The notes under the pieces: generated by a model | Told to the model about the DNA's origin: nothing | Database searches by the model: none | The model's input: the letters and a program-made list of their open reading frames with translations, nothing else | Program-made: the position numbers and the translations under genes | Assembly (NCBI GenBank): GCA_023146045.1 | Contig: JAGLCW010000201.1 | Location: 1 to 62,946, forward strand | Direction of reading: 5' to 3' | DNA length: 62,946 nucleotides | From: Caldisericia bacterium | GTDB taxonomy: Bacteria; Caldisericota; Caldisericia; UBA6126 | Shown: positions 11,470-50,160 of the stretch, piece by piece | Layout: each line of letters starts with the position of its first letter | How positions within the stretch are numbered: position 1 is the first letter of the stretch

Positions 11470-11543
11470 TCGGGGAGAGAAGAATTGAACTTCCGACCTC
11501 TTGATCCCGAACCAAGCGCTCTACCAGGCTGAGCTACTCCCCG
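11470..11543 (-). tRNA. tRNA-Pro (anticodon CGG)
   Basis: Hand-folded cloverleaf. Acceptor CGGGGAG/CTCCCCG, D stem GCTC/GAGC, anticodon stem CTTGG/TCAAG with loop TTCGGGA (CGG, G37), T arm GGAAG-TTCAATT-CTTCT, discriminator A. No encoded CCA. Confidence 0.85.
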
Positions 11544-11557
11544 ATGAAGTAAAAATA

Positions 11558-11632
11558 TCGGAGCGAGAAGATTCGAACTTCCGACCCCCAGCACCCCATG
11601 CTGGTGCGCTAGCCAAACTGCGCCACGCTCCG
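11558..11632 (-). tRNA. tRNA-Pro (anticodon GGG)
   Basis: Hand-folded cloverleaf. Acceptor CGGAGCG/CGCTCCG, D stem GCGC/GCGC, anticodon stem CCAGC/GCTGG with loop ATGGGGT (GGG, G37), T arm GGAAG-TTCGAAT-CTTCT, discriminator A. Confidence 0.85.
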
Positions 11633-31583: not shown

Positions 31584-31625
31584 AAAATAAAAAAGTGGCT
31601 ACACTGTATGTAGCCACTTTTTTAT
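31584..31625 (-). terminator. Rho-independent terminator ending the giant surface-protein operon (bidirectional in form)
   Basis: 10-bp perfect stem AGTGGCTACA / TGTAGCCACT (31594-31603, 31609-31618) with a 5-nt loop. On the minus strand it is followed by TTTTTATTTT, on the plus strand by TTTTTT. The hairpin stem begins 23 nt downstream of the stop codon at 31642-31644. Confidence 0.8.
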
Positions 31626-31641
31626 TAAATATCTATATTCT

Positions 31642-34600
31642 TTATGGGTAAGTTAATGATGCTTCCCATAATTGGGCATTCCACCCAACTTTCATTCCCA
31701 TTGCCTCTGCCACAAACCTTAATGGAATCAATGTTCTTCCATTTCTTAACTCTGGCTCAGCAGGCATTGATTTAGTTTCTTTTCTTCCGTCTTTATGAGT
31801 AATCATTGCGTTTTTATTATCAATCCAAAGATCGATATGGATACCTCTGAAATCATAGGAAACTTTCTTGCTCGCGCCTTCCCATCCTACAGTTGCTCCA
31901 AATGATTCTGCAACAACTCTAAAAGGTACCATTGTGTGCATATTGTATTTCAAATACGGTGGAGCATCTAGTGTAATTGGGGTTGCATTCAAATATGCAT
32001 TTTCGACGCCAATTCGTAACTTTAGGCAACACCTTACAATAAATGAAACTGTTACTATGTTGGTATTACCAACTCTGTCTACAACAGTCATTTGCAATAC
32101 ATTATCACCAGCTAAAACACTCATTCCAATTACTCTATCAAAACTACCCATTGAACTTACTGGTATAATGATTTCTTCAAGATTTTTGGTTAAAGATTTT
32201 ACACTAACAGAATCTATTCCCATTTCTGTGCTTCCTTTAACCCTAATATTTGCATGAAGTTCATTTCCATTAGAAGTCCTACCAAAATAGACATCTTCAA
32301 CGGTCTGATATAACTGTGGCATAGAAACCATTAGAACTGGAGGATTTACTTTTACAATAATTCTGTAAGTTCCAAACGTAATATTTCCAGCTTCATCAAT
32401 AGCTTTTATTTGCAGAATATTCTCACCATTTTTCAAAGATAATAGTGTAGAGAAAGTATTTTCAATCAATGATACAGGTTGCTGATTAAGAGTAACCATT
32501 ACAGGCGAAACATCATTGATTTTTACAGACAATGCAAAGGCTTTGTCTCTTGTGTATACAACTTCACTTTCAAGGTTTGTAACAATCTCTGGACCTTCTC
32601 CATCGTATGCATAATCAACTTCATATACTTCAGACTCAGTACCCATACTTGTTACTATTCTATAGTATAGAGTATGTCTACCAGGTTGATTTAATACTAT
32701 TGGATCAGTATATTTTTTCTCTTGAGCATTATCTATGTGATAGTAAAAAGTACCAATAACGTTTGATGTAAATATTGCAGTTGGTGCAGTTACAAACCAA
32801 CCAGAAAGACCATCTGGATGGTCAGGAGTTAGCAAACAATCTATTTCTAGATTTGGTTCTACAGTGAATGGCTCTGACATTATTTGTGACGGCTCTTTAT
32901 CTGTCCAAATACTAATTCTGTAGTCGTAACCAGCTTTTGTAGGATTTATTATGCCTGCTTGTTTATAAAAGACAATTATTACATCTTGATTATTTGCGAG
33001 CATCATACTAAGTGGTATTGTCACAACTTTGTCTTTTTTTGCTAAAGAACCTGATAGTCTTACATTGTTTACTGAAACAAAACTTCCGTGTAATTCTTCA
33101 GGAAGAACAAAATTATTTAGAGATAAATAAATGTTTTCTCCTTTTAACAAGGCACCGTAAGGTCCTAAATTGAATCTAACACTAAGTTCTGTTGGAGCAG
33201 CAATAGTAGCAGGTTTTAATCCAACTTTAACATCTTCTAATGCAGATTTATCAACAATTTGGAATGGTTCAGATTCAACTGTTGATTGCTCCACAGAAGT
33301 ATAAAGTCTACATTGATACATACCTGGAAATTCAGGATTTTTTATTCCAGCTTCTTTTGTAACAACTATTTCATTTAATGATAAAGCTTGAATCGTTCTA
33401 TCCAATTTAATAATTATAGATTTACCAGACACAGTCGGATCTTTTGAAGGTATCATTCCATTAATAACAACACTTGTTCTGGTAATTCTTTTTGGTAGTG
33501 CAAAATTGTAATCAAAAACAATTACAATTAAATCTCCAGAATTCAATTCTCCAGATACACCAGTTGTGAATTTAACTTCATACGATGCAATTTCTCCTGC
33601 TATTACAGGATTTGGTGAAACAACAACTTCTGAAAGTGAAGAAACACCAATATGGTATGCTTCAGATGTTGAAGGAGTTGGTTGTTTTGAAGTAAAAACA
33701 GATAGATGATAGTCTTTCTCAGTTTCTGGATTAATGACTCCCTTAATTATTAATTCAACTTTTTGCCCACCGTTTAGCTCTTTTGGTGGAACTATTCTAA
33801 TGAATTTATTGTTTCTATCGACAAATGGAACTATAAACAATCCTGATCCATTTACGTAAACATCTTGTGCGGAAATATAGCTTGGTAAAATAGTTTCGGA
33901 AGGGAATCGTATTGTTATTGTATCTGCTACATTCCCAAGTTCCCCGTCTAATCCTAGCGTAAAACCAATCTCATACTGTGCCGTAGCTCCAACAGTTGAT
34001 GGAGTTACATTTATTTCAGGCATACTTACGGAGCCAGGAGATGCAACCATTTCCATTTGTGTTACTGATCCAAATAATGGATGTGTTATTGTAACATTGA
34101 ATGATCCCTCTTTTGAATCCATACAGTAAAATTCAATTGTGCTGGTTCCTTCTTTAATTTGAATTTGGTTTTGCGAAATCCAAGTTGTAGAAGATTTTGA
34201 AAAACTTACTGTTTGAGAATCAGCACTTAAAACAATCATTATATCTCTATTTGTAGGGAATGGATTACCAAATATATCAGATATATTTACGATGATTGGA
34301 TCTGAAGGCTTATTAACTCTTAACAATCTTGGTGGAGTTCCAAAAGAAAGTTTTTTCTTCGATCCCCTTATTGTTAATGTCATTATTGCAGCATTATAAT
34401 CTTCAGAAGTTGCAGTTATTGAAATATTGTTTTGCTCTAACTCAGAAACGTAGAAAGGCATTGTTTCTGAAAAGTTTGTTGACACTTCTGTGAAGAACTT
34501 ATTCGTTGTTGTCCAGGTTACACCATCTTGAGAAAATCTTGTTGTTGTTGATGATGATGCCAATATTACTGACGTAGAAGAGTTTTGAGAAATCAAATTT

Positions 34601-37600
34601 CCTAATTCATCTGTCATTTTTACAGTAATTGGTCCAATTATCCCAGATGGTTCAAATGAAGATGGAAATGATGCTGGCTCAAATCTTAAATCATTTACAC
34701 CATTTCTTACATCAATTTCAGCTTGAGCTTCTCTATATGAGTCATTTTGCCTTACAACAACTGTTAGCGTACATCTTCCTTCAGATGTAGCCAAAAACGT
34801 TATTTCATTTGGATTTGTCATTTTCTGTATTTTTCCAAGAGCTGGACTAACAGAATATGTATAGCTTACATTTTCAATTAGTTCTCCATAACTGTCGTAA
34901 GCAACAACTATGAATGGTGTTTTATTTCCTCTTGATGTTGAAACCTTTGATGGGGTAAGTACTATGTTTTCTAGACCACCAACAACTGTAACTGTTGCAG
35001 ATGCAGTTCTAGGAGATTGAGAGCCATATGAAACTGTAACAGAAATACTACCTTTTCCGGTAGAATTGGCATAAAACTCTACTCTTGGATCGTTAAAACT
35101 ACCAATCCAACCAATATCTCCAGAAATATTCCAACGATACTCAACACCCCTGCTAATTCTGTTTCCGTTTACATCGTATACAAAAGTAGCAAATGTTTGT
35201 GTTTTGCCTTCTTCTATTCTTAGTTCATCAGGTGTAATTTCTATTCTACCAATCTCTAAATCTGGACAAATAAAAATACTTCTATCTCTCCTGCCTAAAC
35301 CAGCACCAACAACTTCAAAATACATTGTATGTGTTCCTTCACTTGTATTTTGAATATCGGCATCTTTTGTAAACTTAATTGTAACCATATCGTTCTTTCC
35401 AATTGCTATTGGTGAGACTAAAGTTACTGTGTATTGAGCTACAACCGGTTGAGTTCTACAAATTGTAGATCCAAACATAATGTTATAAGTATCCAGAGAA
35501 GATGGAATAAAAGTACCATTAGGAAAAGTTATATCAATGGCGGTTGTATTCGCAACAATTGTAACTGGAGTATAAAAAGTAAACACATACTCTGCATTTG
35601 TGTACGGAGTACAAGGAGAAATCTCTGCAGTAATATGTAATGGACCTGTATTTGCATATATTGTATATTCATTAGACATTAATGGAGATATTTTTGAACC
35701 CTCTCTTAGTGTCCATAATTCTAAATTATATGTTGTAGCTATTGTAGGGTTCTTCACATGTGCATCTTCTGCAATAATGATCTCTATATTAGAATTACCC
35801 TTTATTGCTATAGGAGAGTAAACTTGAATAGTTCTATCTATAGGGTTTGTTAGTGGGTTAATGTTGCAACGAATATTATTCACTCTGATTCTATTTGAAG
35901 CAATAGACGCTGGAATAGTTGTGTCTGCAGGAAATTCTAAATTAATAGTGTCTCCCATATTAAGCCCACCATAGGTACCTGTTTTGAACCTTATAGTGTA
36001 TATACCATCTACACCGACAAATGCTGGTCTTACAGAAACAGTAGGAATAGTATAAGAAACCGGCGTAATTGTATATTCTGAAGAAGAAGTATAAACTTCT
36101 TCCTTTGATGTTTTTACAAAAATTTGGTAATTCCCTGGGGAAGAAGGGTTTAGCATTCCAGATTGCTCTGTGAAATAAACATACAAATTGTCTAGATTAT
36201 TTACATTAATAGGCGTTGTAAATGTTACAATATTATGGTCAATTTTAACATTTAGAACTGCTACCTCATTACCGCTTATTATTCCATCTTGATCTACTAA
36301 TATTGTACTAGCGGGAATAAATGATGGCAACCTTGTTTCTTGAGGTAACATTATAGAAACTGTGTCAACTCTCGCAGTTAATGCGCCTATCGGGCCAGTT
36401 TCAAATCCAAAATCCATACCACAATCTCTTCCAGCAATATTGCTAGATAGGGCTACCTGTATTGGTAAATCATTATTTATTTCTGTTGCACCAACACCCT
36501 GGATTTTTGAGTACAAATAATAAATACCTGAAACTGCAGATGGCTCGGTAGCGGTATAAACATATAATGTGAAAGGTTGTGGAGTTACTGTAACAACTGG
36601 GTTATCTATGTCAGCTGATTTTAAAAACTTGATTGATACTTTTGAGCTATGACTAATTGATGTAGGTAATGGAATTTGAACCATTTTTGACCCAACAGGA
36701 TATGGTGCTACAGCATCTAAAACAGATGATCCACTATTTACTGGAATATTGTTAATCAAAATATTTCCTGGTGGTATCATATTTGTTGGCACTGGGTAGT
36801 TTGTATCAAATATTGCTTTGTATTGAGGTGGGAATATTACAGTAACAAACTGTCCTGATGCTACTCCACCACTTGAACCAGTAAGAAAATCAATTTCATA
36901 TTCAGCGCCTTTTCCGTTTGTTGGTATTGCTGGTTGAGGAATACAATATCCAGATGCATTTGGTAAAACAGAAACTCTAACAGCTCCAGATACCGTACCA
37001 ATTGTATATATTTTTGATTTAACTGGCATTGTTTCTTTTGATGTATAAGCTGTTAATGTGTATGATCCAGGTTCTGCTGGATTCGATATTCCACAACTTG
37101 TAAGAAATATAACTTTTGCATTTGTTTTTTGTGCAATAGTTGGAAATCCAGTTGGTAATACTACAACAACTTTTCTACCATAGACTTGAACAGAAGATGC
37201 TGTCATTTCGACAACAGCAGTAACATTTACTATTCTTACATTGTTTGGATTTATGAAAGAAGGAATGCTTGTGCCTTCTGGAAATTCAATTGTAATCTGT
37301 TCGTTCTCTTTAAGTCCTTCATCTACGTCACCGAGCGTTAATAGAATTTCTTGTTGAGAAACAACTTTTATCCCTGGTTCTCCTAAGGTAACATAAATGT
37401 CTTTAACTGATGTGTAAACCATAAATGGATCTGAGATAAATGGATCGATATCCCTTGGTATTTCAATTTTTATAGTGAAAAATTTTGGGGTAACATCAAT
37501 TGTTGGAACGATAATTTTAGCTTGCTTAGCTATTGTAACTACAACAGGCTTACCACCTTCAATAGATTGTGGTACAAAAATTGCAATCTGCCTTGTAACA

Positions 37601-39276
37601 GGATTTACTGTTGCTGGTGCGGTTGTAGCTACGCCATTAATCTGTATATCGCCTGCTGGTATGTCTATTAATGGTATTCCAGTTCCTTCTGGAAAAGTGA
37701 GTGTAATTGTATCGTTATTAAAAGTATACAATCCACCAGAATTTCTAAGATTAAAATTAATCTTCCAATCTGCTTCTTCTTCCGATTTGTTTGGTGTTAC
37801 TTCAACACTAGTCGTTGTGTAACCTTGAATTCTGTAATTCTGAGAAGTTACAATTGATGGCTCTTGTGATGTTGAAAGTCGTAAATTATATACACCAGCA
37901 ATTTCTGGGTTACGAATGCCAGCATCGGTTGTGAATATAAAGCATACGTATTGACCTGCTAGAACAGTTTCTGGAACAATAAATGAAACTTTATTGCCTG
38001 ATATTTGCGGGTCATAAGGAACATTTTTTGTTGCTCCAGTATAAGGTAAAACTGGTACAACTACAGGAGTTGGAGTAGCTATCTTAATGCTGTAGGCAGA
38101 AATTGTATTTGGAATTGTTGTACCGGATGGAAATATCACATCTACCCTACCAGAATTTGCAGTAAGTTTTCCTTGGTCTCCAACTTTAAAAGCACAATGA
38201 TATTCGGCTACTGTGCCAATTTTATCTGGTTGTACTTTTACTTCTGGAGCTTCAAGAGAAGTGTTAAGTGAATATGGATTAGACTCCAAAGGTGCTTCTA
38301 CTTGAGTTATTCCGTCACTTCTAAAAATGGAAATATTGATTGACCGATTTTCAAGTAAACCACTAGGATTAATAATACCAGAAGCAGTACTGAAAACAAT
38401 TGTCATTTCTGGGGCATAACTAGATGTTGTATTAATATTATTTGGAATGATTAAATCCATTTCACAAAAACTACCGGTTGGATTTGGTGCAGGAATTCCC
38501 TCTGAAATGAATTGAGGATCTACTGTTGGTCTTGCACCATTTATAGTAATGGATTCTTTTGGTATAGGGGCTCTAATGCTTGTAGCATGAGTTGGATCAC
38601 CACCAGCAATCAAATTTGCATCCCATTCAATTCTTATTCTATCTCCAGAATACAGTTTTTTGCTTGTTCCGCTACCTAATTTTAATTTTATAGTGTATTG
38701 AGCTCTTTCTCCTGCCCTATTCGGCTCAGGATAAACAGAAGCTCTACTCATTTCACTAACAATTTCAAATTGTGAAGAAGAAGCTGTTTCTATTTGCCTT
38801 TGGTTATTTGCCGCAGTATCGTAAGTTCTAAGTTGCAGCGCATAATTTCCTGGCGTAGGAGGATTAAGAATTTTGGTGTTTACAATTTCAATCTGTTGAA
38901 ATCCTGGATCCACAGCTGAGTCACCAACTTCAAATGAAAGTTTGTTTCCATTTAAGATTACAGTTCCAGGCTTAACAGATGGAGGAAGAGCGGAAGCTAC
39001 AGGTTTCTGTAATGTTACATTAAAATCTGCTGCTACAAATGGATTACCTACAGACCTTGACAGTAAGTCAAATGCTGCAGGAAAATCGATTTCTATTCTA
39101 CCACCTAGTGGAATATTTTCCGTATTTGTAAATTTCAGCGTGTGATTGGCAGGTGTTCCTGCTGTATTTGGATTTGGCTCATTAACAAATGTAGTAATAC
39201 GTGAATATCCAACAGCAACAACGGAAAATGCTAATATAAATCCTAAAACAAGACTAATACACTTTTTGCCGTTCAT
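31642..39276 (-). CDS. Giant secreted tandem-module surface protein A (2544 aa from the preferred start)
   Basis: Preferred start is ATG at 39276, after AAGGAGGAG; the ORF track starts at 39312. Order: signal/TM segment MNGKKCISLVLGFILAFSVVAVG, about 9 repeat modules, 2 Big_2-like Ig domains, 2 further Ig-like domains, 3 modules, then the common C-terminal cassette. Confidence 0.85.
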   Translation of the reverse strand: MNGKKCISLVLGFILAFSVVAVGYSRITTFVNEPNPNTAGTPANHTLKFTNTENIPLGGRIEIDFPAAFDLLSRSVGNPFVAADFNVTLQKPVASALPPSVKPGTVILNGNKLSFEVGDSAVDPGFQQIEIVNTKILNPPTPGNYALQLRTYDTAANNQRQIETASSSQFEIVSEMSRASVYPEPNRAGERAQYTIKLKLGSGTSKKLYSGDRIRIEWDANLIAGGDPTHATSIRAPIPKESITINGARPTVDPQFISEGIPAPNPTGSFCEMDLIIPNNINTTSSYAPEMTIVFSTASGIINPSGLLENRSINISIFRSDGITQVEAPLESNPYSLNTSLEAPEVKVQPDKIGTVAEYHCAFKVGDQGKLTANSGRVDVIFPSGTTIPNTISAYSIKIATPTPVVVPVLPYTGATKNVPYDPQISGNKVSFIVPETVLAGQYVCFIFTTDAGIRNPEIAGVYNLRLSTSQEPSIVTSQNYRIQGYTTTSVEVTPNKSEEEADWKINFNLRNSGGLYTFNNDTITLTFPEGTGIPLIDIPAGDIQINGVATTAPATVNPVTRQIAIFVPQSIEGGKPVVVTIAKQAKIIVPTIDVTPKFFTIKIEIPRDIDPFISDPFMVYTSVKDIYVTLGEPGIKVVSQQEILLTLGDVDEGLKENEQITIEFPEGTSIPSFINPNNVRIVNVTAVVEMTASSVQVYGRKVVVVLPTGFPTIAQKTNAKVIFLTSCGISNPAEPGSYTLTAYTSKETMPVKSKIYTIGTVSGAVRVSVLPNASGYCIPQPAIPTNGKGAEYEIDFLTGSSGGVASGQFVTVIFPPQYKAIFDTNYPVPTNMIPPGNILINNIPVNSGSSVLDAVAPYPVGSKMVQIPLPTSISHSSKVSIKFLKSADIDNPVVTVTPQPFTLYVYTATEPSAVSGIYYLYSKIQGVGATEINNDLPIQVALSSNIAGRDCGMDFGFETGPIGALTARVDTVSIMLPQETRLPSFIPASTILVDQDGIISGNEVAVLNVKIDHNIVTFTTPINVNNLDNLYVYFTEQSGMLNPSSPGNYQIFVKTSKEEVYTSSSEYTITPVSYTIPTVSVRPAFVGVDGIYTIRFKTGTYGGLNMGDTINLEFPADTTIPASIASNRIRVNNIRCNINPLTNPIDRTIQVYSPIAIKGNSNIEIIIAEDAHVKNPTIATTYNLELWTLREGSKISPLMSNEYTIYANTGPLHITAEISPCTPYTNAEYVFTFYTPVTIVANTTAIDITFPNGTFIPSSLDTYNIMFGSTICRTQPVVAQYTVTLVSPIAIGKNDMVTIKFTKDADIQNTSEGTHTMYFEVVGAGLGRRDRSIFICPDLEIGRIEITPDELRIEEGKTQTFATFVYDVNGNRISRGVEYRWNISGDIGWIGSFNDPRVEFYANSTGKGSISVTVSYGSQSPRTASATVTVVGGLENIVLTPSKVSTSRGNKTPFIVVAYDSYGELIENVSYTYSVSPALGKIQKMTNPNEITFLATSEGRCTLTVVVRQNDSYREAQAEIDVRNGVNDLRFEPASFPSSFEPSGIIGPITVKMTDELGNLISQNSSTSVILASSSTTTRFSQDGVTWTTTNKFFTEVSTNFSETMPFYVSELEQNNISITATSEDYNAAIMTLTIRGSKKKLSFGTPPRLLRVNKPSDPIIVNISDIFGNPFPTNRDIMIVLSADSQTVSFSKSSTTWISQNQIQIKEGTSTIEFYCMDSKEGSFNVTITHPLFGSVTQMEMVASPGSVSMPEINVTPSTVGATAQYEIGFTLGLDGELGNVADTITIRFPSETILPSYISAQDVYVNGSGLFIVPFVDRNNKFIRIVPPKELNGGQKVELIIKGVINPETEKDYHLSVFTSKQPTPSTSEAYHIGVSSLSEVVVSPNPVIAGEIASYEVKFTTGVSGELNSGDLIVIVFDYNFALPKRITRTSVVINGMIPSKDPTVSGKSIIIKLDRTIQALSLNEIVVTKEAGIKNPEFPGMYQCRLYTSVEQSTVESEPFQIVDKSALEDVKVGLKPATIAAPTELSVRFNLGPYGALLKGENIYLSLNNFVLPEELHGSFVSVNNVRLSGSLAKKDKVVTIPLSMMLANNQDVIIVFYKQAGIINPTKAGYDYRISIWTDKEPSQIMSEPFTVEPNLEIDCLLTPDHPDGLSGWFVTAPTAIFTSNVIGTFYYHIDNAQEKKYTDPIVLNQPGRHTLYYRIVTSMGTESEVYEVDYAYDGEGPEIVTNLESEVVYTRDKAFALSVKINDVSPVMVTLNQQPVSLIENTFSTLLSLKNGENILQIKAIDEAGNITFGTYRIIVKVNPPVLMVSMPQLYQTVEDVYFGRTSNGNELHANIRVKGSTEMGIDSVSVKSLTKNLEEIIIPVSSMGSFDRVIGMSVLAGDNVLQMTVVDRVGNTNIVTVSFIVRCCLKLRIGVENAYLNATPITLDAPPYLKYNMHTMVPFRVVAESFGATVGWEGASKKVSYDFRGIHIDLWIDNKNAMITHKDGRKETKSMPAEPELRNGRTLIPLRFVAEAMGMKVGWNAQLWEASLTYP
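31645..32853 (-). other. Common C-terminal cassette of protein A (GW(Y/F) beta-sandwich + two Ig-like domains + copper-amine-oxidase-N-terminal-like domain)
   Basis: Last 403 aa: DHPDGLSGWFVTAPTAIF... ; LNQQPVSL..F..LLSLKNGENILQIKAIDEAGN ; ...MVPFRVVAESFGATVGWEG ... NGRTLIPLRFVAEAMGMKVGWN. Confidence 0.7.
34705..35268 (-). other. Two tandem Big_2-like bacterial Ig domains in protein A
   Basis: IEITPDELRIEEGKTQTFATFVYDVNGNRISRGVEYRWNISGDIG...GKGSISVTV and IVLTPSKVSTSRGNKTPFIVVAYDSYGELIENVSYTYSVSP...EGRCTLTVVV. Boundaries are approximate. Confidence 0.6.
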
Positions 39277-39321
39277 ATTCTCCTCCTTCGCGATGATTGT
39301 ACTATTTGACAATACATGATT

Positions 39322-42300: not shown

Positions 42301-45300
42301 TATTATTCTGTTGCCTTCAATAGCTGGAGGATTAGATATTGTAACTCCAGAACCAGCAATAGCAGTAATAAATCCTTGTCCGCCTGGGGTAGTCATTGGT
42401 TCAGGGAACCCAGATGGTATAGTAACTTCAACAAGTCCATTTGTAATATCTGCAATAGATGTGAATGTCATATTAAAGCTAATGTCGCCTTGGTTTACAT
42501 TTACTCTATTAGGAGTTATTGTAGCCTGTATTGGTGCCTTATCTGACGGTCCAGGTCCTGGGTCAGGATCTTCTGATACCGTAACAACGGCTGTAGCTTC
42601 AAGAATTTTTGTTCCGTAAGTTGCTATCACTCTTACTTTTGAAGTACCTTCAGTTTGAGCATTAAATGTTGTAATCTGTCCAGTTTTTGGACTTAATGTA
42701 CCTGTAGAATCTCCTTCTAAGAACCATTCTATTGATGCTGCAATAGGATTATTATTTTCATCCCATACTTCAGCCTTAAATACTTGAGATTCACCAATTC
42801 CAACAGATGCAATGGTTGGGGTTAAAACTACCCTACCAATTCCAGATGCTACACTTACTTGCGTAGAAACTGTTAATGTCGTATTTCCAAAAGTAACAGA
42901 ACAATTTATTGAACCTGATCCTGCAATTTGTGCAGCGGTAAAAATGGCTTCATTTTTATCAATCGCCGACAAACTACCCGCATTACCAGAAACAGTCCAA
43001 TAATATTGCAAACCAGCTGGAGGGATAATGTTTCCATCTTCGTCATATGAAGTAACAGTCATAGTTTTTCTTTGGTTTTTATCTAGGACTAGTACTTCTG
43101 GATCCATAACAACTTTTGTTAAGTGAAAATCACCACAAATGAAGTAGTCTTCAGATTCTACCCATCTGTTATCTGGTTCTATTGCGCCAGCTTTAATTTT
43201 TAAGCTGAACATTCCAGATGAAGGATTTTGAACTTTAGCTTTTTCCAAAAATTCAACCCTAACAGTTGATAATGCTTGCACAGCTTGAGGAACTCTTATA
43301 TATACTTTTTGTTTATTTACAATTATCTGTGGAAATACTCCAACATTTGCTGGATGGTTATTAACTAGCACTTTATCTCCATCAATAACTGATGGCAATC
43401 TGGTTCCATAAGGAAATTCAATATCAATTGTATCTCCTATTGCCAAGGCATTTACATTTGTGAAAGAAATAGTGTATTTTGCACCAGTTAAATCTTGTAA
43501 ACATGGAGTTACTAGCACAACAGCAGCAGATAACCCTAGTATTGAGTAAGGATCTGATCTTATAAGTAACGGCTCAGAAGAAGTTGATACTTCAAGAGTA
43601 TATGTTCCAGATTGAGATGGATTTTTAATTCCTGTCAATTCTGTAAATTTAAGATCAAGTGTATCCAATGCATTAACATCTGCCGGTACAGTAACAACTA
43701 CCTCATTCGTTTCCTGATTTATTACAGGAGCTTGAGCAAGAGTACCGTCAAAAGTTACAATAGCAAATATATCAGTAACTTTAAGTCTAACGGATCCAGC
43801 CAATATTGACTGTGGCAACGTTGTATCTACTGGGAATTTTATCGTAATAGTACCGATATCTTTTACTAAATTACCAGATGGTCCAGTGTCAAAATTAATT
43901 CTATATTCAACTTCTGCATTTGGCGTTGCTCCTCTTGGTTCTGGAGCTGGCTGGAATAATGGTTCTACAAACCCATTTTTCACCAGTTCTACAGTAATAT
44001 CACCAACAGATGAAAATAGACTAAATGCCGTTGACTCAACTGGGGTTGGTTCAACAGAAGTTAATACAGCTAAGCGATACAATCCAACAGTTGGTGGATT
44101 TTTAATTCCAGCAATATTTGTGAAACTAACGATAACTTCAGACTCTGAAGAGATTCCAACTGGTGTAATGATTTTAATGTATTTCAAATCTCCACCAGCA
44201 TTAACTACCGTTGGTATTGAATCTAGTGCAATTCCATTAACAAAGATTGAATTTGGAGGAATTGAAGTTGTCATTTGTGGATATTGAGAAGGATTTGGAT
44301 CAAATCCAACTGTATAATCGCCTATATATGAAGGATCGAAAAATACTACGATTTCCCCAATATCTTCTAACATATTACCATTAATACCAGTAGTAAATTT
44401 CACTTCATACGCAGTATTTCTTGCATTTATAGCTGCAGGCTCTGCAATTACTCTTGGAATACTGCTAGTTGAAAGTATTGAATAGTAGTTCGATTGTGCA
44501 TAAATTGGTTGAGAAGAAGTTTTCAGTTTCAATTGGTATGATCCAGGTTCTTGTGGGTTTACAATTTGTGCGCCTTTTTCAAATTTCACACAAACATGAT
44601 TACCATTTGGAACATTTATTGGAACTCTAAAAGAAACTGTGTTGCCGTCAATATTTATTGGTGGCATAGCAGAAAAAGTTGGGTTACAAATTGCTCCTGT
44701 CCCAATTTTAATATCTGCAGGATTTAAATAAGTTGGTACTTTTGTACCTTCTGGAAATTCAACAGATATTGAACTAGTATTTGCATAGAGTTGTGCAGAA
44801 GGAATAGCACCCAAATCAAATTCTAATAAGTACTCGGCAAATGTTGCTGTAGTCTTTGGATTTGGATGTGTTATAGGAACAGTTAGATTCTGTACTGCAT
44901 CTCCAATAGTAAATTCCATAGATTCTATTGCTATAGGTTCTTTATTTGTCCAAGTAATCAACTTGTAATTATTTGGTATTGCAGGATTAGAAATGTTAGC
45001 ACTTAATAAAAATTCAACAGTAACCATCTCTTCTGCTTCTACAGAAATTGGTGTTTGAATTTCTATCCATCTATACAGTGCCCATCCTGGTTCATTATCT
45101 ACATTAGGTGGAAGTATTGGTCCAGAATTAACTATAGAGAATACATTACAGTATTGTCCATTAATTTTTACACTTGCTGGAGCCAAATTAGCTACAGGAG
45201 TAGTGTACTGAGTTCCATCAAAACCAATATATATTCTGTCGCTCATACCAACTAATGCGCCATCACTACCAAGCCTAAATTGAACTGTATATTCTGCGAA

Positions 45301-48300
45301 TTGGTTAATAACAGGTGGTACTGGTACAACTTCAGATGGTTTAACAGTTGACCGAATTATATAGTTTCTAGAAATCCCATAATTTGGTTGAGTACTTGTC
45401 TTCACAAGTAAACTATAAATTCCAGCTTCTTGTGGATTAGTAATATTAGCATCTTTGCAAAACATTACGTAAACATTAGAACCTGGAAGAATTGATATTG
45501 GAGTAGGAAATGAGATTTCTTGTCCAATTATTGTTACTGGTTGATTAAGATTTATTCCAACTACCGGTGGGCACGTAACTGCATCTGGATCACCAACACC
45601 CCAAAAAGGTGCAGTGGAAATATAAACTGATCCAGAAGATATGGAAGAAGGTATTTTTGTTCCATGTGGAAACACAAAAGATATTCTATCCAAGTTTTGA
45701 GTTAGTGGTGGTTTTGTTGCAGATGTAACGAAATGCACAATGTATTGAGCATTAAGAGAAACACCATTTGATTTAACAATTACTGAGCGCATATCTATTG
45801 GAGGATTAATTCCTGGAAATGCTACTGAATCTACAATGTTATACAGTTCGGATTTTATATCAATATCTTCTTGAGAAGTATGTGCATAAGCAAATTTTAT
45901 ACCCTCAGTTAATGGGTTTGTTAAAGCACAAGATTCTAAAAAGATAATCTCTAACTCTGACTTAGACTTAATGTCTATTGGAGTTGTTATCTGAAACTGA
46001 ATGTAAGGTGCGCCGTAGATTGGATGCACAATATATGGAGTTGATAAAGTAGTGAATGCACCATTTACTTTAATTGTACTAGGTTGTAGTGCTCCACCTA
46101 CCGCAGGAGAGTTAAGAGGTAAACTAACAAAGATTTTGTCTTCGTTAGCAATTAATTCGTTTACACCAATTTTCATGTTAACCAGATATACTACGCGATC
46201 TCCGCCAATATTGTTTGGCATAGGATAAACAACTAAATCTGTTATTGAACTTCCTATTGCGTAAAAGTCTGATTCTGCATAAAAAGGTTGTGTTGATGTC
46301 ATGGCCTGGATCTTGTAAAGCCCAGATGTTGTTGGGTTTATAACATTAGCATTCTTTTTAAACCTTATGGTAATGTCAGAAGAATTTGGAATAGTAACAG
46401 GAACTGTGATTGCAATTTTAGTGCCTGACACAACAGGAGATACATTTAAGTTAACCTCTGGTCCAACACCTATTTGAATGGTTATTCCAGTCGTTGGAAT
46501 AGTTCTTCCTAATTTTGTTCCACTTGGGAAAGCTAAGGTTATAGTGCCTTGATTTGCTTGAAGACCTAAATCTAAACCCAAGTCTATTGTGTATTCAGCC
46601 TGCATTCCTATTGATGGAGGGTCTACAACTATTGGGGCATTGAAAGTAATGGTATCTTCAATTTGGTAGTATTCAGATTCAACCTGAATTGGCTCTTGGT
46701 CAGTCCAAATAACACCTTTGTAATTACCAGCATCTGGGTTGATTAAACCAGCTGAAGGTAAAATTACCATCGTAACTGATGCACTGGATCTTAAATCCTC
46801 TGGTGTGTAAATTGATATTTCTACCCATCCGTCTATTGCTGGGTAATTTGGATCAGTAGAGGCAACTATTGTTGTAGCTACTTGAGTATAGTTATTGCCA
46901 ACCATTACCGAAGAAGTAGGCAATATTACTGGAACTGGTGTTCCTGTAATAACTTTTTGTAAAATGTGCACTGCATCTGTATTTTTGGCTAAACCACCAT
47001 CATTTCCTATCTTAAATTTATAAGTGTATTGAGCATCGGTTGCGTCTTTTGATCTTGGAGATGGTGTAATTGTAAAGTCTTTAACAGATGTTCCTATTGC
47101 ATAATTTGGTGAAACCCTGTAATAAGGCTGAGATGAAGTTTTTACTTGCAAACTGTAAACTCCAGCAGATGTAGGGTTTTTAACCTTTGCAGATTCTTTG
47201 AATACAATAATTAACACTGGATCTGCTCCAGGAACATTTGGATCATATGTTTCTGGAACTGGGAAAGTTATTGTAGTACTTGAAATAGTTGGAGGTAGTG
47301 TTAGGTCTTTTACAATTCCATTATTTTCTATTGAAATACTACCCTTGTTTATCGATCTTTCTAGTCTAGTTTCACGAGGAAACGCTATTGTTATTGTGTC
47401 AATATCTTTAGTTAATTTTTTAGCGATTGTAATATTTACGGTATATTCAGCTTGCACGCTGGTTGCAGGCGGCTGAACATCTACTGAATTAACTACGACA
47501 GCGTTTTTAATCAAATATATTGGAGATTGCATTTCAATTGGTTCTTTGTTTGTATAAACAGTTGCTCTGTAATTTCCATCTGTAGGATTCTTTAATCCAG
47601 CAGAAGCTGTAAACAAAACTGTAACAGAACCACTTGCTCGAATATCTTCTGGTGGTGATAATTCAAAAAGATACCTTCCACCTGTTAAATCTGTAATAAT
47701 GGGGTTAACAATACAAGTTTTTCCATCAATAGTAACTGAAGCGGCGGCTGGTGCAGGTAATGCACCTAAGTCTAACTCAATAAATATTTTATCTGTTGAA
47801 TTTGCAGTTAGGGCTCCGTTTTTACCAACTTTAAATTTAACTCCATAGTGAACATTTTCACTGTCAGCAGTATCTGGCATAGGTGTTATTTCTATGTCTG
47901 TAACTGAGGAACCAATGTTGTATGGTGGTGACAAGCGATATGCTATTTGTTTTGAAGTATTTACTTGAAGCTTGTAAACACCTGCATTGGTTGGATTTAC
48001 TATTTTCCCGGATTTTTTTAAAATTATGTCAAATGTTGATCCTGCAGGAATATTGCTTGGTACGCTGAAGGTAACAACACTAGAACGTATAGTTGGGGTT
48101 AACACTACATCCACTCCGTCAACTGAAATATCTCCAGGAGATAGGGTTGATGGCAATCTTTGACCAGAAGGTAAGGCAACTGAAATAGTATCTATGTTTT
48201 TGGTTAATGCATCATCTACTGTTACATTAATCGTGTACTCAGCTTCTTCACCTGCAGCTTTTGGGTCAACGGTTACTGCGTTTACATCTATAGCGTCTTG

Positions 48301-50160
48301 AATTTCATATGTTTCAGATTCGGATTCTAAAGTTTCAGAACTTGTCCAAACAATTCCTTTGTAAGATCCGGCAATTGGGTTAATTAATCCCGCTGAATCC
48401 TTAAAAGTAATTTTTACAGTACTCCCAGCTCTTAAATCTTCTGGTGGATAAACAGTTAAATCAAATGTATTTCCAGAAACTAAAGCAACTTCAGTTGGTG
48501 TTTTTGTAAATTTTCCTGTACTAAAAAACACAGAGCCATTTGATATTGTTGATCCATCGAAAGTGACTGGATTGTTACCAAGATCAAGCTGGATTGTTAT
48601 TTTTCCACTATCTTTGTATAGTGCTCCACTTTGGCCTAGTTTAAAATCAATAACATACTGAACATTTTCAGAACCATCGGTGCTAGGTGAAGGTGTAACC
48701 TTTACGTCGCTTACACCTGTTCCAATAGAAAATGATGGTGATGATCTGTAGTGTGGTTGAGCAGATGTCATTGCCTGAACTACATAAGCCCCAGCAGTAG
48801 TTGGAGTTTTTAAATTTAGATTCTTCGTTAAAGTAACACGTATTGGTGAATTTGCAGGCATATCGGTAGGAACTGTTATAACAACATACGAAGAATTAAA
48901 TGTCGGAGCTATTGTTAAAACAGTTGGAATCCATGTGATGCCACCATCAATAGAATGTTCAAATGTTACTGCTGTTATTGGTGGATTACGTACTCCACTC
49001 ATGCTCATAGGCATAGCAAAAGTAATTGTGCCAACTCCCACAGACAAAGGTATATCGTTGATAATCCCCATCTGGAAAGAAGCAACAGTACTAGTAGTAG
49101 GTGGATCAATTATAACACCTTGTACTCCGCTCGTAACAGCATCAAGATCATAGAATGATACTGCATCGTTAACTGCTATTACTTCTGATGTAATATTTAT
49201 TGTTTCTCTACTTGTTGTAAGGCCAATTTTATAATCATCAGTTACAGGATTTTTCATACCAACCTGGTTTGTTAGTACTATTGTAACTTCTCTGTTTGCA
49301 GCAATATCACTTAATGTATTTGGAATAATAAATGTTATTGTCTGTAAAGTTTGATTTGGTGCCACTCCAGCAAGAGTTGCTGCTGCAGAACTTTTTAAAA
49401 CTTTATTGTCGATTTGAATGTAAGTAGCAGGAATATAATAACCACCAGAACCATTGTCAAAACAACCTTCTGGTTTAGGAAAATCATGGTCATTTCCAGT
49501 AAAATCTAAGGTAAAAGTATCTGAACCAGCTGTTAGTTTACCTTGATTTCCTGTTTTCCATTTTACAGACCATGTAACAAATTCCTTGATATTTTCTACT
49601 CCGGTAACATCATAATTTGGATCAATGTTTGGCTGTATGGTTACTTTGGCTCTATATCCAATATAGTAGTATGATGAATATTCGTCATAGTTTTCAATTG
49701 CTGTTGTTCCATTTGGTCCTTCAAATGTACCAACTTGCAACTGGTATTTTCCACTTTGTGAAGTAGGATTTTTCACTCCAGCATCTATTGAAAACACAAC
49801 AACTACTGTAGAGCCAGAGGCAATATCTGCCGGACTCACAATTGAAGCAATTGTTCCAGAAGTAGTTGGATTTACTGTTGGATTAGCACCGTCTACGGTT
49901 ACATCGGTTTTGTCAATTGTTGAATTAACAAAAGAAGTCCCGGATGGAAATTTTACCTTAATAAAATCACCTGTGTCCAGATCACTTTCTAAGTCGAATG
50001 TAACTGTGTATTCAGATACTTCTCCGGTTGCTACATCATTTGTACCAGCTTCATTGGTTACAGCAACAGTAATGCTTGTTGTAGCGAATGAAGGCATATA
50101 TAATGCAAATTGCGAAAGAATAAGGGTAAAAGCAACAATAAATGCTATTCCTTTTTTCAT
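39322..50160 (-). CDS. Giant secreted tandem-module surface protein B (3612 aa)
   Basis: ATG at 50160 after AAAGGAGGAAC. Signal peptide MKKGIAFIVAFTLILSQFALYMPSFA. Order: about 17 modules, 2 Big_2-like domains, a PGPGP linker, 2 variant modules, 3 modules, then the common C-terminal cassette. Only 45 nt separate it from gene A. Confidence 0.88.
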   Translation of the reverse strand: MKKGIAFIVAFTLILSQFALYMPSFATTSITVAVTNEAGTNDVATGEVSEYTVTFDLESDLDTGDFIKVKFPSGTSFVNSTIDKTDVTVDGANPTVNPTTSGTIASIVSPADIASGSTVVVVFSIDAGVKNPTSQSGKYQLQVGTFEGPNGTTAIENYDEYSSYYYIGYRAKVTIQPNIDPNYDVTGVENIKEFVTWSVKWKTGNQGKLTAGSDTFTLDFTGNDHDFPKPEGCFDNGSGGYYIPATYIQIDNKVLKSSAAATLAGVAPNQTLQTITFIIPNTLSDIAANREVTIVLTNQVGMKNPVTDDYKIGLTTSRETINITSEVIAVNDAVSFYDLDAVTSGVQGVIIDPPTTSTVASFQMGIINDIPLSVGVGTITFAMPMSMSGVRNPPITAVTFEHSIDGGITWIPTVLTIAPTFNSSYVVITVPTDMPANSPIRVTLTKNLNLKTPTTAGAYVVQAMTSAQPHYRSSPSFSIGTGVSDVKVTPSPSTDGSENVQYVIDFKLGQSGALYKDSGKITIQLDLGNNPVTFDGSTISNGSVFFSTGKFTKTPTEVALVSGNTFDLTVYPPEDLRAGSTVKITFKDSAGLINPIAGSYKGIVWTSSETLESESETYEIQDAIDVNAVTVDPKAAGEEAEYTINVTVDDALTKNIDTISVALPSGQRLPSTLSPGDISVDGVDVVLTPTIRSSVVTFSVPSNIPAGSTFDIILKKSGKIVNPTNAGVYKLQVNTSKQIAYRLSPPYNIGSSVTDIEITPMPDTADSENVHYGVKFKVGKNGALTANSTDKIFIELDLGALPAPAAASVTIDGKTCIVNPIITDLTGGRYLFELSPPEDIRASGSVTVLFTASAGLKNPTDGNYRATVYTNKEPIEMQSPIYLIKNAVVVNSVDVQPPATSVQAEYTVNITIAKKLTKDIDTITIAFPRETRLERSINKGSISIENNGIVKDLTLPPTISSTTITFPVPETYDPNVPGADPVLIIVFKESAKVKNPTSAGVYSLQVKTSSQPYYRVSPNYAIGTSVKDFTITPSPRSKDATDAQYTYKFKIGNDGGLAKNTDAVHILQKVITGTPVPVILPTSSVMVGNNYTQVATTIVASTDPNYPAIDGWVEISIYTPEDLRSSASVTMVILPSAGLINPDAGNYKGVIWTDQEPIQVESEYYQIEDTITFNAPIVVDPPSIGMQAEYTIDLGLDLGLQANQGTITLAFPSGTKLGRTIPTTGITIQIGVGPEVNLNVSPVVSGTKIAITVPVTIPNSSDITIRFKKNANVINPTTSGLYKIQAMTSTQPFYAESDFYAIGSSITDLVVYPMPNNIGGDRVVYLVNMKIGVNELIANEDKIFVSLPLNSPAVGGALQPSTIKVNGAFTTLSTPYIVHPIYGAPYIQFQITTPIDIKSKSELEIIFLESCALTNPLTEGIKFAYAHTSQEDIDIKSELYNIVDSVAFPGINPPIDMRSVIVKSNGVSLNAQYIVHFVTSATKPPLTQNLDRISFVFPHGTKIPSSISSGSVYISTAPFWGVGDPDAVTCPPVVGINLNQPVTIIGQEISFPTPISILPGSNVYVMFCKDANITNPQEAGIYSLLVKTSTQPNYGISRNYIIRSTVKPSEVVPVPPVINQFAEYTVQFRLGSDGALVGMSDRIYIGFDGTQYTTPVANLAPASVKINGQYCNVFSIVNSGPILPPNVDNEPGWALYRWIEIQTPISVEAEEMVTVEFLLSANISNPAIPNNYKLITWTNKEPIAIESMEFTIGDAVQNLTVPITHPNPKTTATFAEYLLEFDLGAIPSAQLYANTSSISVEFPEGTKVPTYLNPADIKIGTGAICNPTFSAMPPINIDGNTVSFRVPINVPNGNHVCVKFEKGAQIVNPQEPGSYQLKLKTSSQPIYAQSNYYSILSTSSIPRVIAEPAAINARNTAYEVKFTTGINGNMLEDIGEIVVFFDPSYIGDYTVGFDPNPSQYPQMTTSIPPNSIFVNGIALDSIPTVVNAGGDLKYIKIITPVGISSESEVIVSFTNIAGIKNPPTVGLYRLAVLTSVEPTPVESTAFSLFSSVGDITVELVKNGFVEPLFQPAPEPRGATPNAEVEYRINFDTGPSGNLVKDIGTITIKFPVDTTLPQSILAGSVRLKVTDIFAIVTFDGTLAQAPVINQETNEVVVTVPADVNALDTLDLKFTELTGIKNPSQSGTYTLEVSTSSEPLLIRSDPYSILGLSAAVVLVTPCLQDLTGAKYTISFTNVNALAIGDTIDIEFPYGTRLPSVIDGDKVLVNNHPANVGVFPQIIVNKQKVYIRVPQAVQALSTVRVEFLEKAKVQNPSSGMFSLKIKAGAIEPDNRWVESEDYFICGDFHLTKVVMDPEVLVLDKNQRKTMTVTSYDEDGNIIPPAGLQYYWTVSGNAGSLSAIDKNEAIFTAAQIAGSGSINCSVTFGNTTLTVSTQVSVASGIGRVVLTPTIASVGIGESQVFKAEVWDENNNPIAASIEWFLEGDSTGTLSPKTGQITTFNAQTEGTSKVRVIATYGTKILEATAVVTVSEDPDPGPGPSDKAPIQATITPNRVNVNQGDISFNMTFTSIADITNGLVEVTIPSGFPEPMTTPGGQGFITAIAGSGVTISNPPAIEGNRIIFNVMKMPNRRTFTLSYSKVSAPSTPGEYIFDVSGKKNPESSLAKVETQPKILVVSAADGSGRATINPNQASAGATSQKFEISLTADAVLNGGAVQFIIPQGWSRPSSSSTAEGYVHLKTDSLEFGNSPEVLGNIVTVPIMNMGVNDKLTIIYENVRIPAQPNVYTFVVKTQGLGGNFVEIPASPSVKVSNTRISEGKVEVIPNQTSMPAEYIISFRTSGTGSLTKDKGTIVMLFPGATILPSSIQSSKITVNGEPVHLPPDVEAVRSKLTITIPVDVSSNTLVIIKISAEADIVNPAKAADDYKIMLTTSSDTIQTQTDPYEIIVSELRNIKVTVSPIQPAAIAEYKIELQVGGAGALNVNQDSVTITFPSDTEIPSSIPANAVTINSVPLMTRPQIDLAQRKIIMALPVRIENDSKVIIEIKSQAKIKNPTRDGMYKLTVFTSKETIKTESESYQIGTSLLGDVKVSLSSSLTEAEKVTYTIQFRTGGYGRIEVGETVTASFDSRYDIGSVQAHHVTMNGVVCSITPEVSEGVSIIIKSPIAIDSDSNATVTISNIQNPKESGEYTISIATKAEPMPVVSTPYTIGMILHTEITINPSAPNGLSSWYKLAPNILFNNDVATARVFYSWDDETFQRYMGIAITAPEGIHTVTYYSVAEGFSDEPKQDMSFKVDTKAPEVHIMEPRDGAVVNEPQIKVEGEVYENNNFTVTVNGRPATITEKRFTSLVSLNPGDNLIDIVAIDDAGNRSITPRIRVKYVQPSDIKFNITSPQSLSSVLPVLVKTEKGNQLTATVQIQGKITPATSNTVSIIIIDRMDTPVTLPINEDGVFSGTVKMPVIAGLNGVVFSVKDKITKKEYSTSVAIVAKVAIELQIGNSLAFINKQENILDAPPYIKEGRTMLPMRFVGEAIGATVGWIPQGKILTYDFDTIHIELSIGSKEASISRGEKEEKVSLEVAPEIKNGRTFVPLRFVTEALGAEVEWVAETKTIVVTK
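39325..40530 (-). other. Common C-terminal cassette of protein B
   Basis: Last 402 aa: SAPNGLSSWYKLAPNILF... ; VNGRPATITEKRFTSLVSLNPGDNLIDIVAIDDAGN ; GRTMLPMRFVGEAIGATVGW ... NGRTFVPLRFVTEALGAEVEW. Confidence 0.7.
42575..43125 (-). other. Two tandem Big_2-like bacterial Ig domains in protein B
   Basis: VVMDPEVLVLDKNQRKTMTVTSYDEDGNIIPPAGLQYYWTVSGNAGSL... and VVLTPTIASVGIGESQVFKAEVWDENNNPIAASIEWFLEGD... Boundaries are approximate. Confidence 0.6.
44008..49128 (-). repeat. Protein-level alternating two-type (Y/Z) module array in protein B, about 6.5 di-module units (aa ~345-2051)
   Basis: Y modules end TSxQPxYxxSxxYxIGSS: MTSAQPHYRSSPSFSIGTG, NTSKQIAYRLSPPYNIGSS, KTSSQPYYRVSPNYAIGTS, MTSTQPFYAESDFYAIGSS, KTSTQPNYGISRNYIIRST, KTSSQPIYAQSNYYSILSTS. 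Z modules end (W/Y)TxxEPIxxESxxYxIxDA(I/V) and carry PEDLR/PEDIR. The two types alternate strictly. Confidence 0.75.

Follow-up and report, generated by a model that had tools for sequence, protein, structure and literature searches.

A tandem Ig-like repeat with remote similarity to DUF2808 and BslA in giant proteins of a predicted Caldisericia envelope locus

BslA/YweA, the biofilm 'hydrophobin' of Bacillus (PF17735; 4BHU, 5MKD), is a secreted protein of about 180 aa that consists of a single Ig-like sandwich, bears a Leu-rich cap and carries a CxC motif at its C-terminus. It self-assembles through lateral contacts into a two-dimensional lattice (PMC7615278). DUF2808 (PF10989) is mainly a cyanobacterial domain; its member All7597 was detected in a cyanobacterial exoproteome (PMC10957091), so this DUF2808 protein is extracellular too. 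Fibrillar adhesins are long secreted proteins in which a signal peptide is followed by many Ig-like domains in tandem, with a domain for anchoring or sorting at the end (Monzon et al., PMC8286594; CLIPPER/DUF11 stalks, bioRxiv 10.1101/2025.04.25.650565). Cu_amine_oxidN1, or 'stalk', domains have been treated as cell-wall-associated or wall-binding modules (PMC4137172, bioRxiv 10.64898/2026.09.23.753664). In the literature on DUF2808, 'BslA-like' proteins and the Caldisericum envelope we found no description of the repeat reported here.

The window analysed spans positions 1 to 62,946 of contig JAGLCW010000201.1 of a Caldisericia bacterium. Two giant ORFs, p3612 and p2556, three smaller module-bearing paralogues and genes of other families were mapped with profile HMMs, Pfam and structure prediction as follows.

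3..278, minus strand: fifth module protein, N-terminus only (signal peptide and first module), leaving the window at its left edge; six-frame scan
31586..31626, minus strand: terminator-like hairpin, 19-bp stem and T run, just past the p2556 stop codon; sequence
31642..39312, minus strand: p2556, 2556 aa; ORF list, domain maps
31645..32859, minus strand: p2556 C-terminal anchor region, with OmpL47-type barrel (weak), Glucodextran_B/Big_13-like Ig and Cu_amine_oxidN1; domain matches
32860..34014, minus strand: p2556 canonical modules 10-12, aa 1767-2151; HMM maps
34015..35310, minus strand: p2556 aa 1335-1766, other Ig-like domains (PKD/Big-like); Pfam, below cut-offs
35311..39180, minus strand: p2556 canonical modules 1-9, aa 45-1334; HMM maps
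39322..50160, minus strand: p3612, 3612 aa; ORF list, domain maps, Pfam
39325..40542, minus strand: p3612 C-terminal ~400 aa, presumed wall anchor; domain matches
40543..41709, minus strand: p3612 canonical modules 17-19, aa 2818-3206; HMM maps
41782..42525, minus strand: p3612 aa 2546-2793, two divergent modules; family HMM, Pfam BslA, AF2, Foldseek
42526..43137, minus strand: p3612 aa 2342-2545, two other Ig-like domains (invasin D3/Big_1-like); Pfam, below cut-offs
43138..50043, minus strand: p3612 canonical modules 1-16, aa 40-2341; window and family HMM maps
50233..51423, minus strand: AAA_14/DUF4143 ATPase gene, directly upstream of p3612; domain match
51526..53379, minus strand: family-2 glycosyltransferase, multi-pass, PgaC/CelA-like, inside the cluster; far below equivalog cut-offs
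53348..56833, minus strand: p1161, with signal peptide, Ig-like domain, 5 modules (window 54494-56458) and the same C-terminal anchor region; HMM, Pfam
56846..58525, minus strand: p559, with signal peptide, 1 module (window 58007-58351) and the same C-terminal anchor region; HMM, Pfam
58483-60720, minus strand: putative membrane anti-sigma factor with DUF5666, head of the cluster; domain match
60713-61282, minus strand: ECF sigma factor, head of the cluster; domain match

The order of domains in p3612 is a signal peptide, 16 canonical modules, two other Ig-like domains, two divergent BslA-like modules, three further canonical modules and the C-terminal anchor region. p2556 is built along similar lines, with a signal peptide, nine modules, other Ig-like domains, three modules and a C-terminal anchor region; translation of it probably begins at the ATG at 39276, and alignment with its orthologue P0011 (70.9% identity) begins at aa 13. 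Signal-peptide-like N-termini can be read in all five module proteins. C-terminal Cu_amine_oxidN1 matches range from E 1e-17 to 1e-46; in p3612 this domain (E 6.8e-46) is accompanied by a Glucodextran_B-like Ig domain (E 1.3e-14) and a weak OmpL47-type barrel (E 6e-5). Transcription of the unit likely ends at the hairpin beyond p2556. The putative anti-sigma factor at the cluster's head has an H-x3-C-x2-C motif and a TM segment readable in its sequence. The locus recurs in synteny in another metagenome assembly, and the AAA_14/DUF4143 neighbour is also present in L001 and L003.

An HMM iterated from one module recovered 40 domains in the four complete ORFs with i-E values of 1e-10 to 1e-39, distributed as 21 in p3612, 13 in p2556, 5 in p1161 and 1 in p559. 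A second, family-wide HMM, which drew on 1,571 modules, the majority of them from other organisms, gave 37 canonical modules (19, 12, 5 and 1, in the same order) and weaker scores of 14.9 and 20.6 bits for p3612 aa 2546-2664 and 2683-2793, the divergent modules. The window-only match at p2556 aa 1554-1648 was absent with the family-wide HMM and was dropped for want of that confirmation. An earlier note had placed about 40 copies in five proteins between 31642 and 50160. Both figures are correct for the whole window (40 copies, five minus-strand proteins, the fifth of which the six-frame scan located at the left edge, accounting for the number given), but the interval itself holds only two of the five, p3612 and p2556, with 33-34 copies.

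Modules are ~125 aa long (envelopes of 105-157 aa) and are joined by linkers of about 8 residues. Their consensus is V.V.P....A.Y.I.F..G..G.L / D.I.I.FP.GT.LPSSI....V.VNG / P..I.....V.V.F...AGI.NP...G.Y.L.V.TS.E....S..Y.I. The landmarks are the three that had been read by eye, in the same fixed order, and they agree in the 40 window copies and in 1,137 non-redundant family members. In match columns the window copies share a mean of 23.9% pairwise identity (range 7-49%), and comparison at the DNA level revealed no long repeats, only stretches of 30-56 nt with 60-80% identity over the conserved motifs. Orthologues, in contrast, keep their modules in the same order throughout the array and share 50-71% identity, compared with 24% for paralogous copies: p3612 aligns with P0002 over its full length at 49.8%, and p1161 has orthologues at 45-66% in Caldisericota MAGs. 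Low identity among copies, absence of long DNA repeats and collinear orthologues together establish that the array is ancient and that each of its positions is conserved, as the earlier note had proposed in calling it old and not a recent DNA repeat. Internal order is also visible within p3612, where two subtypes alternate in modules 4-13 to form a two-module super-repeat, and copies two or four apart in the identity matrix are more alike than neighbours.

A canonical module (40930-41304, among modules 17-19 of p3612) was modelled by AF2 as a beta-sandwich with pLDDT 97.9 and pTM 0.90. Foldseek returned no solved structure at E<1e-3 for this model; its neighbours were all Ig-like adhesin, pilin or BslA domains, which bears out the expectation of a beta-rich, Ig-like fold. 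The best TM score, 0.61, was to BslA (4BHU/5MKD: TM 0.61/0.59, E 4.6e-3). The model of a divergent p3612 module (pLDDT 84) matched BslA/YweA at TM 0.59-0.67 and E 3e-4, with 0.63-0.67 in the comparison with 4BHU and 5MKD, from an alignment that itself included BslA sequences. By these models both kinds of module share the BslA fold, a similarity at the level of fold only. A profile search of PDB sequences gave nothing significant, the best match being a Cna collagen adhesin at E 0.02. Viral structures gave no Foldseek match at E<1e-3 and a best TM of at most 0.51; for this reason the 'phage baseplate gpV' label carried by P0203 was rejected as a mis-annotation.

No Pfam or NCBIfam family is dedicated to the module, and DUF2808 was the only curated model to reach significance. 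Whole-protein scores were 38.9 bits (E 1.1e-9) for p3612 and 28.3 bits for p1161, against a cut-off of 25.3; DUF2808 was not listed for p2556 or p559 in the Pfam scan. At the level of single modules, 9 of 40 matched at E<1 (best 4.4e-4) and none reached 25.3 bits. The family consensus scored 24.0 bits over profile positions 43-127 of 146, and an Actinomycetota member scored 109 bits. The DUF2808 core '...I.VP..I.....V.V.F...GI.NP...G.Y...V.T' aligns with the module over about these positions, and the module covers 58-70% of the 146-position model. Since DUF2808 is a domain of unknown function, the match names the module without explaining its role.

By sequence, similarity to BslA stays below threshold throughout. 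The two divergent modules together scored 26.2 bits (E 8e-6, positions 5-100 of 121; cut-off 38.7), the window consensus 17.4 bits, and 2 of 40 modules were listed at E<1; the family HMM scored 14 bits against BslA (P 2e-6). By hhalign, module and BslA aligned at 86% probability and E 4.8e-6 over 71 of 125 columns (99 when relaxed), with a shallow BslA profile (Neff 1.5), and the motifs paired as LPSGF with FP.GT, NG with NG, and LPAAGTYTF with NP...G.Y.L. The divergent modules, whose stretches 'EVTIPSGFPEP' and 'SAPSTPGEYIFDVSGK' resemble BslA, are closer to it than canonical modules are and bridge towards it. BslA had no hmmscan match to DUF2808; the module family sits between the two, a position that falls short of demonstrating one curated family. 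Taken together, these profile comparisons show the module to be a remote relative of DUF2808 and, at sub-threshold level, of BslA. The earlier note had been unable to place the module: it is now loosely placed near these two families, but neither Pfam, NCBIfam nor the PDB offers a confident full-length match to a family of known function. The profile alignment with BslA, at 86% over part of the length, stays below the >95% full-length match that the note had named as refuting.

An exhaustive search of representatives expanded the family to 2,638 clusters at 50% identity, with members from Caldisericota, KSB1, Actinomycetota and Bacillota. Caldisericum exile also has a homologue, P0182. Arrays contain up to 26 copies in proteins of up to about 4,700 aa, and the C-termini are Cu_amine_oxidN1 'stalk' domains or T9SS sorting domains. 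The latter end the array in 82 of 230 proteins from other phyla, which argues that the module array is a portable extracellular unit.

The reading we favour, at a probability of about 0.6, is that the modules are structural units of long cell-surface fibres or of a coat, encoded in a conserved envelope locus. The C-terminal stalk domain would hold the protein non-covalently on the cell wall, a role suggested by how Cu_amine_oxidN1 is annotated elsewhere, and the chain of modules, whose length would be of the order of 100 nm with about 28 domains, would project as a semi-rigid fibre. The giant proteins and their three smaller paralogues could together form a fibrous surface coat or matrix scaffold, probably co-produced with the polysaccharide of the co-encoded GT2 synthase and regulated by the ECF sigma/anti-sigma pair. 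Because a diderm-type envelope has been reported for Caldisericota (PMC7203096), it is uncertain where the protein would be attached. Modules would be mainly structural in this scheme; strict one-to-one conservation of their positions is nonetheless unusual for a mere spacer, and individual modules may have specific roles.

BslA forms its lattice by lateral contacts and is both a remote homologue and the best structural match, so modules might likewise associate side by side, the giant proteins tiling a two-dimensional S-layer or sheath, possibly hydrophobic or elastic, instead of standing as separate fibres. One-to-one conservation of every module position between species, a locus set among core genes and an anchor block common to five paralogues all fit an envelope component better than a variable adhesin. 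We nevertheless consider a tiled coat unlikely. S-layer proteins are normally 40-200 kDa, versus 280-400 kDa for these chains of at least 20 domains, and the module lacks the CxC motif. Nor is the BslA cap clearly retained: of the columns aligned with L76, L77, L79, L119, L121, L123, L124, L153 and I155, five are 51-97% hydrophobic and four, polar in character, only 8-18%, in loops where the alignment is unreliable. A bolder extension seems to us more doubtful again, namely that the module defines a previously unrecognised multi-phylum superfamily linking BslA and cyanobacterial DUF2808 to giant envelope proteins, that an unusual outer coat or sheath of Caldisericota is built mainly from the five paralogues and assembles by BslA-like lateral contacts along chains of 12-21 position-specific modules, and that BslA is a reduced single-module derivative.

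If each module bound a ligand as a CBM does, for example a glycan or the GT2 product, the arrays would serve as high-avidity adhesins or would cross-link the matrix. Within the cluster lies a gene for a processive GT2 synthase, every copy has the surface-loop-like FP.GT.LP and NP...G.Y, and collagen- or ligand-binding adhesin domains and CBMs occur among the low-scoring Foldseek neighbours. The two motifs, FP.GT.LP and AGI.NP...G.Y, are better read as turns and strands that determine the fold, given their recurrence at matching positions in single-domain BslA (LPSGF, LPAAGTY). With no significant match to a CBM or adhesive family in Pfam or PDB sequences, and TM below 0.45 for the best CBM-like matches, multivalent binding strikes us as improbable. 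Much the same structural neighbours raise the idea of CnaA/CLIPPER-type stalk domains stabilised by intramolecular isopeptide, ester or thioester bonds, a type known from fibrillar adhesins and the pilins of Gram-positive bacteria: the top Foldseek E-values belong to EbpB, RrgA, SdrE and CLIPPER 9ifr, and an Asn conserved at 90% in column 98 lies at about the relative position of isopeptide Asn-806 in CLIPPER residues 708-828. TM to those domains is only about 0.5, however, and Pfam gives no match to CLIPPER or Cna families. Across the 1,137 non-redundant modules neither Lys (at most about 16% in any column) nor Cys, Gln or His is conserved, so the reactive partner for an isopeptide bond is missing; we rejected such cross-links and regard the stalk-domain reading as very improbable. 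That the pattern is chance or low complexity, or that the long ORFs are not real genes, was entertained as a general caution, the ORF listing being mechanical, and deserves almost no credence in view of per-domain E-values down to 1e-39, a highly confident structure model, 2,638 homologous clusters and full-length collinear orthologues at 50-71%.

The analysis reveals no new kind of biological system. It does give a name and a structural model to 'dark' surface-protein sequence spread over 2,638 or more clusters at 50% identity, whose members are currently annotated as 'hypothetical', 'stalk domain-containing' or 'T9SS sorting domain-containing'. With a profile of its own for the module, giant envelope proteins would be better annotated in little-known phyla, among them Caldisericota, KSB1 and uncultured Actinomycetota, and the remote link to BslA suggests an origin for the bacterial hydrophobin fold. 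The module proteins share with BslA an Ig-like sandwich and, presumably, secretion to the surface. They differ in their tandem arrays and in the absence of CxC, no conserved Cys being present in any column of the non-redundant set.

A comparable overall design is that of the fibrillar adhesins, which have the same succession of signal-peptide-like N-terminus, tandem Ig-like stalk (12-21 modules in p2556 and p3612) and C-terminal anchor, here Cu_amine_oxidN1 and in homologues a T9SS sorting domain, with an anchoring role suggested by the literature. The classical layout is incomplete because no distinct adhesive tip domain was found with Pfam or NCBIfam; the proteins begin directly with modules. 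Unlike in fibrillar adhesins, the repeats here are 24% identical, one-to-one orthologous and not recently amplified, and the CLIPPER/DUF11 stalk domain belongs to a different family from the module, which is without isopeptide residues. The same design is found in miniature in Brevibacillus laterosporus WP_031414373.1 (694 aa), which has a signal peptide, about 4 diverged modules and a C-terminal Cu_amine_oxidN1. With 4 modules versus 12-21 and without the barrel and Glucodextran_B block, this protein of a cultured organism provides a tractable entry point to the family.

A profile HMM seeded with one module and iterated over the proteins of the window until convergence returned 40 domains with independent E-values of 1e-10 to 1e-39, distributed among four proteins named here by their length in amino acids (p3612, 21; p2556, 13; p1161, 5; p559, 1). 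A fifth module protein, with a signal peptide and one module, was found in a six-frame scan; it starts at an ATG at position 278 and is incomplete, continuing past the left edge of the window.

Module genes of the window and associated features, in gene order, with module counts from the one-module-seeded HMM.
58483-61282, minus strand: ECF sigma factor, then an overlapping 745-aa membrane anti-sigma-like protein; head of the surface-protein cluster
56846-58525, minus strand: p559, one module
53348-56833, minus strand: p1161, five modules
51526-53379, minus strand: multi-pass GT2 glycosyltransferase, between module proteins
50233-51423, minus strand: AAA_14/DUF4143 ATPase, directly upstream of p3612
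39322-50160, minus strand: p3612
31642-39312, minus strand: p2556, 9 nt from p3612
31586-31626, minus strand: strong terminator-like hairpin (19-bp stem and T run), directly 3′ of the p2556 stop codon
Beyond the hairpin, minus strand: trx, rimP, nusA, infB
3-278, minus strand: fifth module protein, incomplete

A broader family HMM, built from 1,571 modules in 230 proteins, confirmed 37 canonical copies in the window. Two divergent p3612 copies (aa 2546-2664 and 2683-2793) also scored positively with it, though weakly, and a doubtful copy in p2556 (aa 1554-1648) was dropped. The earlier note's figure of about 40 copies in five proteins holds across the whole window. The interval to which it assigned them all, 31642-50160, is filled by p3612 and p2556, only two of the five, and contains 33-34 copies. 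The three landmarks by which the module had been described are a true consensus, both in the 40 window copies and in 1,137 non-redundant family members. The best conserved positions are Asn98 (90%), Pro99 (89%), Thr111, Ser120, Leu26, Gly24, Phe18, Tyr14, Pro38, Pro44, Tyr105 and Tyr123. The listed TTG start of p2556 (39276-39312) is probably over-extended by 12 codons, because the alignment with its orthologue P0011 begins at residue 13; the ATG at 39276 (MNGKK...) is the probable true start. Elsewhere in the window, a pair of neighbouring tRNA-Pro genes (anticodons CGG and GGG; 11469-11632, minus strand) falls within the N-terminal extension of thrS as listed (9645-11594, GTG start), so that the thrS start is over-called.

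Compared pairwise, the copies are on average 23.9% identical (range 7-49%), and at the DNA level the only repeats are stretches of 30-56 nt with 60-80% identity over conserved motifs. p3612 aligns end to end with its homologue P0002 at 49.8% identity and p2556 is 70.9% identical to P0011, while collinearity of p2556 with the more distant P0018 persists at 28%. Since orthologous positions resemble each other much more closely than paralogous copies do, the sequences indicate that the array is older than these species and that each module position is maintained by selection; together these data bear out the view of an old array rather than a recent DNA repeat. Modules 4-13 of p3612 (44476-48699; aa 488-1895) alternate between two subtypes, with 35-49% identity for copies two or four apart and 20-32% for neighbours; this is a two-module super-repeat, a trace of duplication by two-module units.

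An AlphaFold2 model of one canonical module, computed from an alignment of the 40 window copies, is very confident (pLDDT 97.9, pTM 0.90) and has eight to nine strands. No solved structure matched it at E<1e-3; the top superposition was with the Bacillus biofilm protein BslA (4BHU, TM 0.61/0.59), and Ig domains of Gram-positive pilins and adhesins followed at TM of about 0.5. No match was obtained in a viral structure library or in a sequence profile search of the PDB, and none of the NCBIfam models represents the module. A model of a divergent module (pLDDT 84), whose input alignment included BslA sequences, matched BslA/YweA (TM 0.59-0.67, E 3e-4) as well as YcnI and a CLIPPER domain.

Pfam provided two weak leads. 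For DUF2808 (PF10989), a domain of unknown function, summed partial hits took two whole proteins past the cut-off, p3612 with 38.9 bits and p1161 with 28.3 bits. It scored 24.0 bits against a cut-off of 25.3 on the family consensus (profile positions 43-127 of 146) and 109 bits on one Actinomycetota member, and several orthologues carry it in their precomputed annotation. BslA (PF17735) covered the two divergent p3612 modules with nearly its whole profile (E 8e-6; 26 bits, where the cut-off is 38.7), and the family HMM scored 14 bits on BslA (P 2e-6, single comparison); BslA itself had no hit to the DUF2808 profile. No full-length match above 95% probability to a family of known function was found; an hhalign comparison of the family profile with a profile of 29 BslA-family sequences (28 database homologues and the query) reached 86% (E 4.8e-6) over 71-99 columns, pairing LPSGF with FP.GT, NG with NG and LPAAGTY with NP...G.Y. 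The module, described earlier as unassignable, indeed has no confident full-length family, but it is remotely linked, below threshold, to both DUF2808 and BslA, and in our reading it is a distinct uncurated family inside a BslA/DUF2808-like group of Ig-fold domains.

When 1.84 billion representatives were searched exhaustively with the profile, 2,638 clusters matched at E<=1e-3, of which 1,328 at <=1e-10 and 479 at <=1e-30, with up to 26 modules per protein. Among 230 proteins analysed locally, 123 carry a C-terminal Cu_amine_oxidN1 (stalk) domain and 82 a T9SS-type sorting domain, and another 8, with IPT/TIG, make up an Actinomycetota group. Among the organism names attached to the records are candidate division KSB1, Caldisericum exile, Caldisericaceae, Clostridia bacterium and Actinomycetota bacterium, and all the proteins are labelled 'hypothetical', 'stalk domain-containing', 'T9SS sorting domain-containing' or 'IPT/TIG'. 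A cultured example is Brevibacillus laterosporus WP_031414373.1, in which a signal peptide is combined with about 4 modules and a stalk domain. The genomes nearest to the window (G+C about 34%) are Caldisericia/Caldisericota MAGs (p1161 identity 66%). A MAG labelled 'Calditrichota' (DAIMET010000010.1) has a p1161 orthologue at 66%, as do three Caldisericota MAGs; it may have been misbinned or mislabelled.

The hairpin parts the module cluster from trx-rimP-nusA-infB. In 3/3 independent loci (the window; L001, 932-2101; L003, 8746-9915) the giant module gene has an AAA_14/DUF4143 ATPase gene immediately upstream; a Logan assembly has the same gene order with a giant protein 50% identical, and on a JGI contig the AAA_14 gene likewise precedes a module protein. 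A distant organism (GCA_040961665.1, JBFOMY010000015.1, 10001-31598) has a similar pair of neighbouring giant module genes (4405 and 2740 aa), both products ending in Cu_amine_oxidN1; the second aligns collinearly with p2556 (28% identity). All four complete proteins of the window have a common C-terminal block, made up of a weak OmpL47-type barrel, a Glucodextran_B-like Ig domain and a strong Cu_amine_oxidN1, which has been treated as a cell-wall-associated or wall-binding module (PMC4137172; bioRxiv 10.64898/2026.09.23.753664). The GT2 enzyme, which may make exopolysaccharide, is distantly PgaC/CelA-like (54 bits; equivalog cut-off, 422). The 745-aa protein (H-x3-C-x2-C motif, one TM segment, DUF5666 in the C-terminal part) likely forms a sigma/anti-sigma pair with the ECF factor.

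In the best-supported view, with a confidence of about 0.6, these are secreted proteins that the C-terminal block would hold on the wall, their module chains forming long fibres or a fibrous coat with the modules as building units; polysaccharide is probably made by the locus as well, under ECF control. The sequences establish the repeat, its fold, the remote homology, the domain architecture, the synteny and the phyletic spread, and location, anchoring, geometry and role are inferred. A laterally assembled, BslA-like layer would fit the link to BslA and the conservation specific to each module position, but the size of the proteins and the unclear counterpart of the BslA hydrophobic cap make it a distinctly less probable arrangement. 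Multivalent ligand binding by the modules seems somewhat less likely again. Stalks stabilised by isopeptide bonds are very improbable, given that the alignment of 1,137 members has no conserved Lys, Cys, Gln or His, a feature that also distinguishes the module from CLIPPER; an artefact we regard as scarcely credible.

The repeat first noticed by eye is thus real, and the interpretation placed on it is supported in part. The family should help annotation and is of mild interest for how BslA arose. It is new and large, but its design, giant surface proteins built of tandem Ig-like repeats, is familiar rather than a new type of system.
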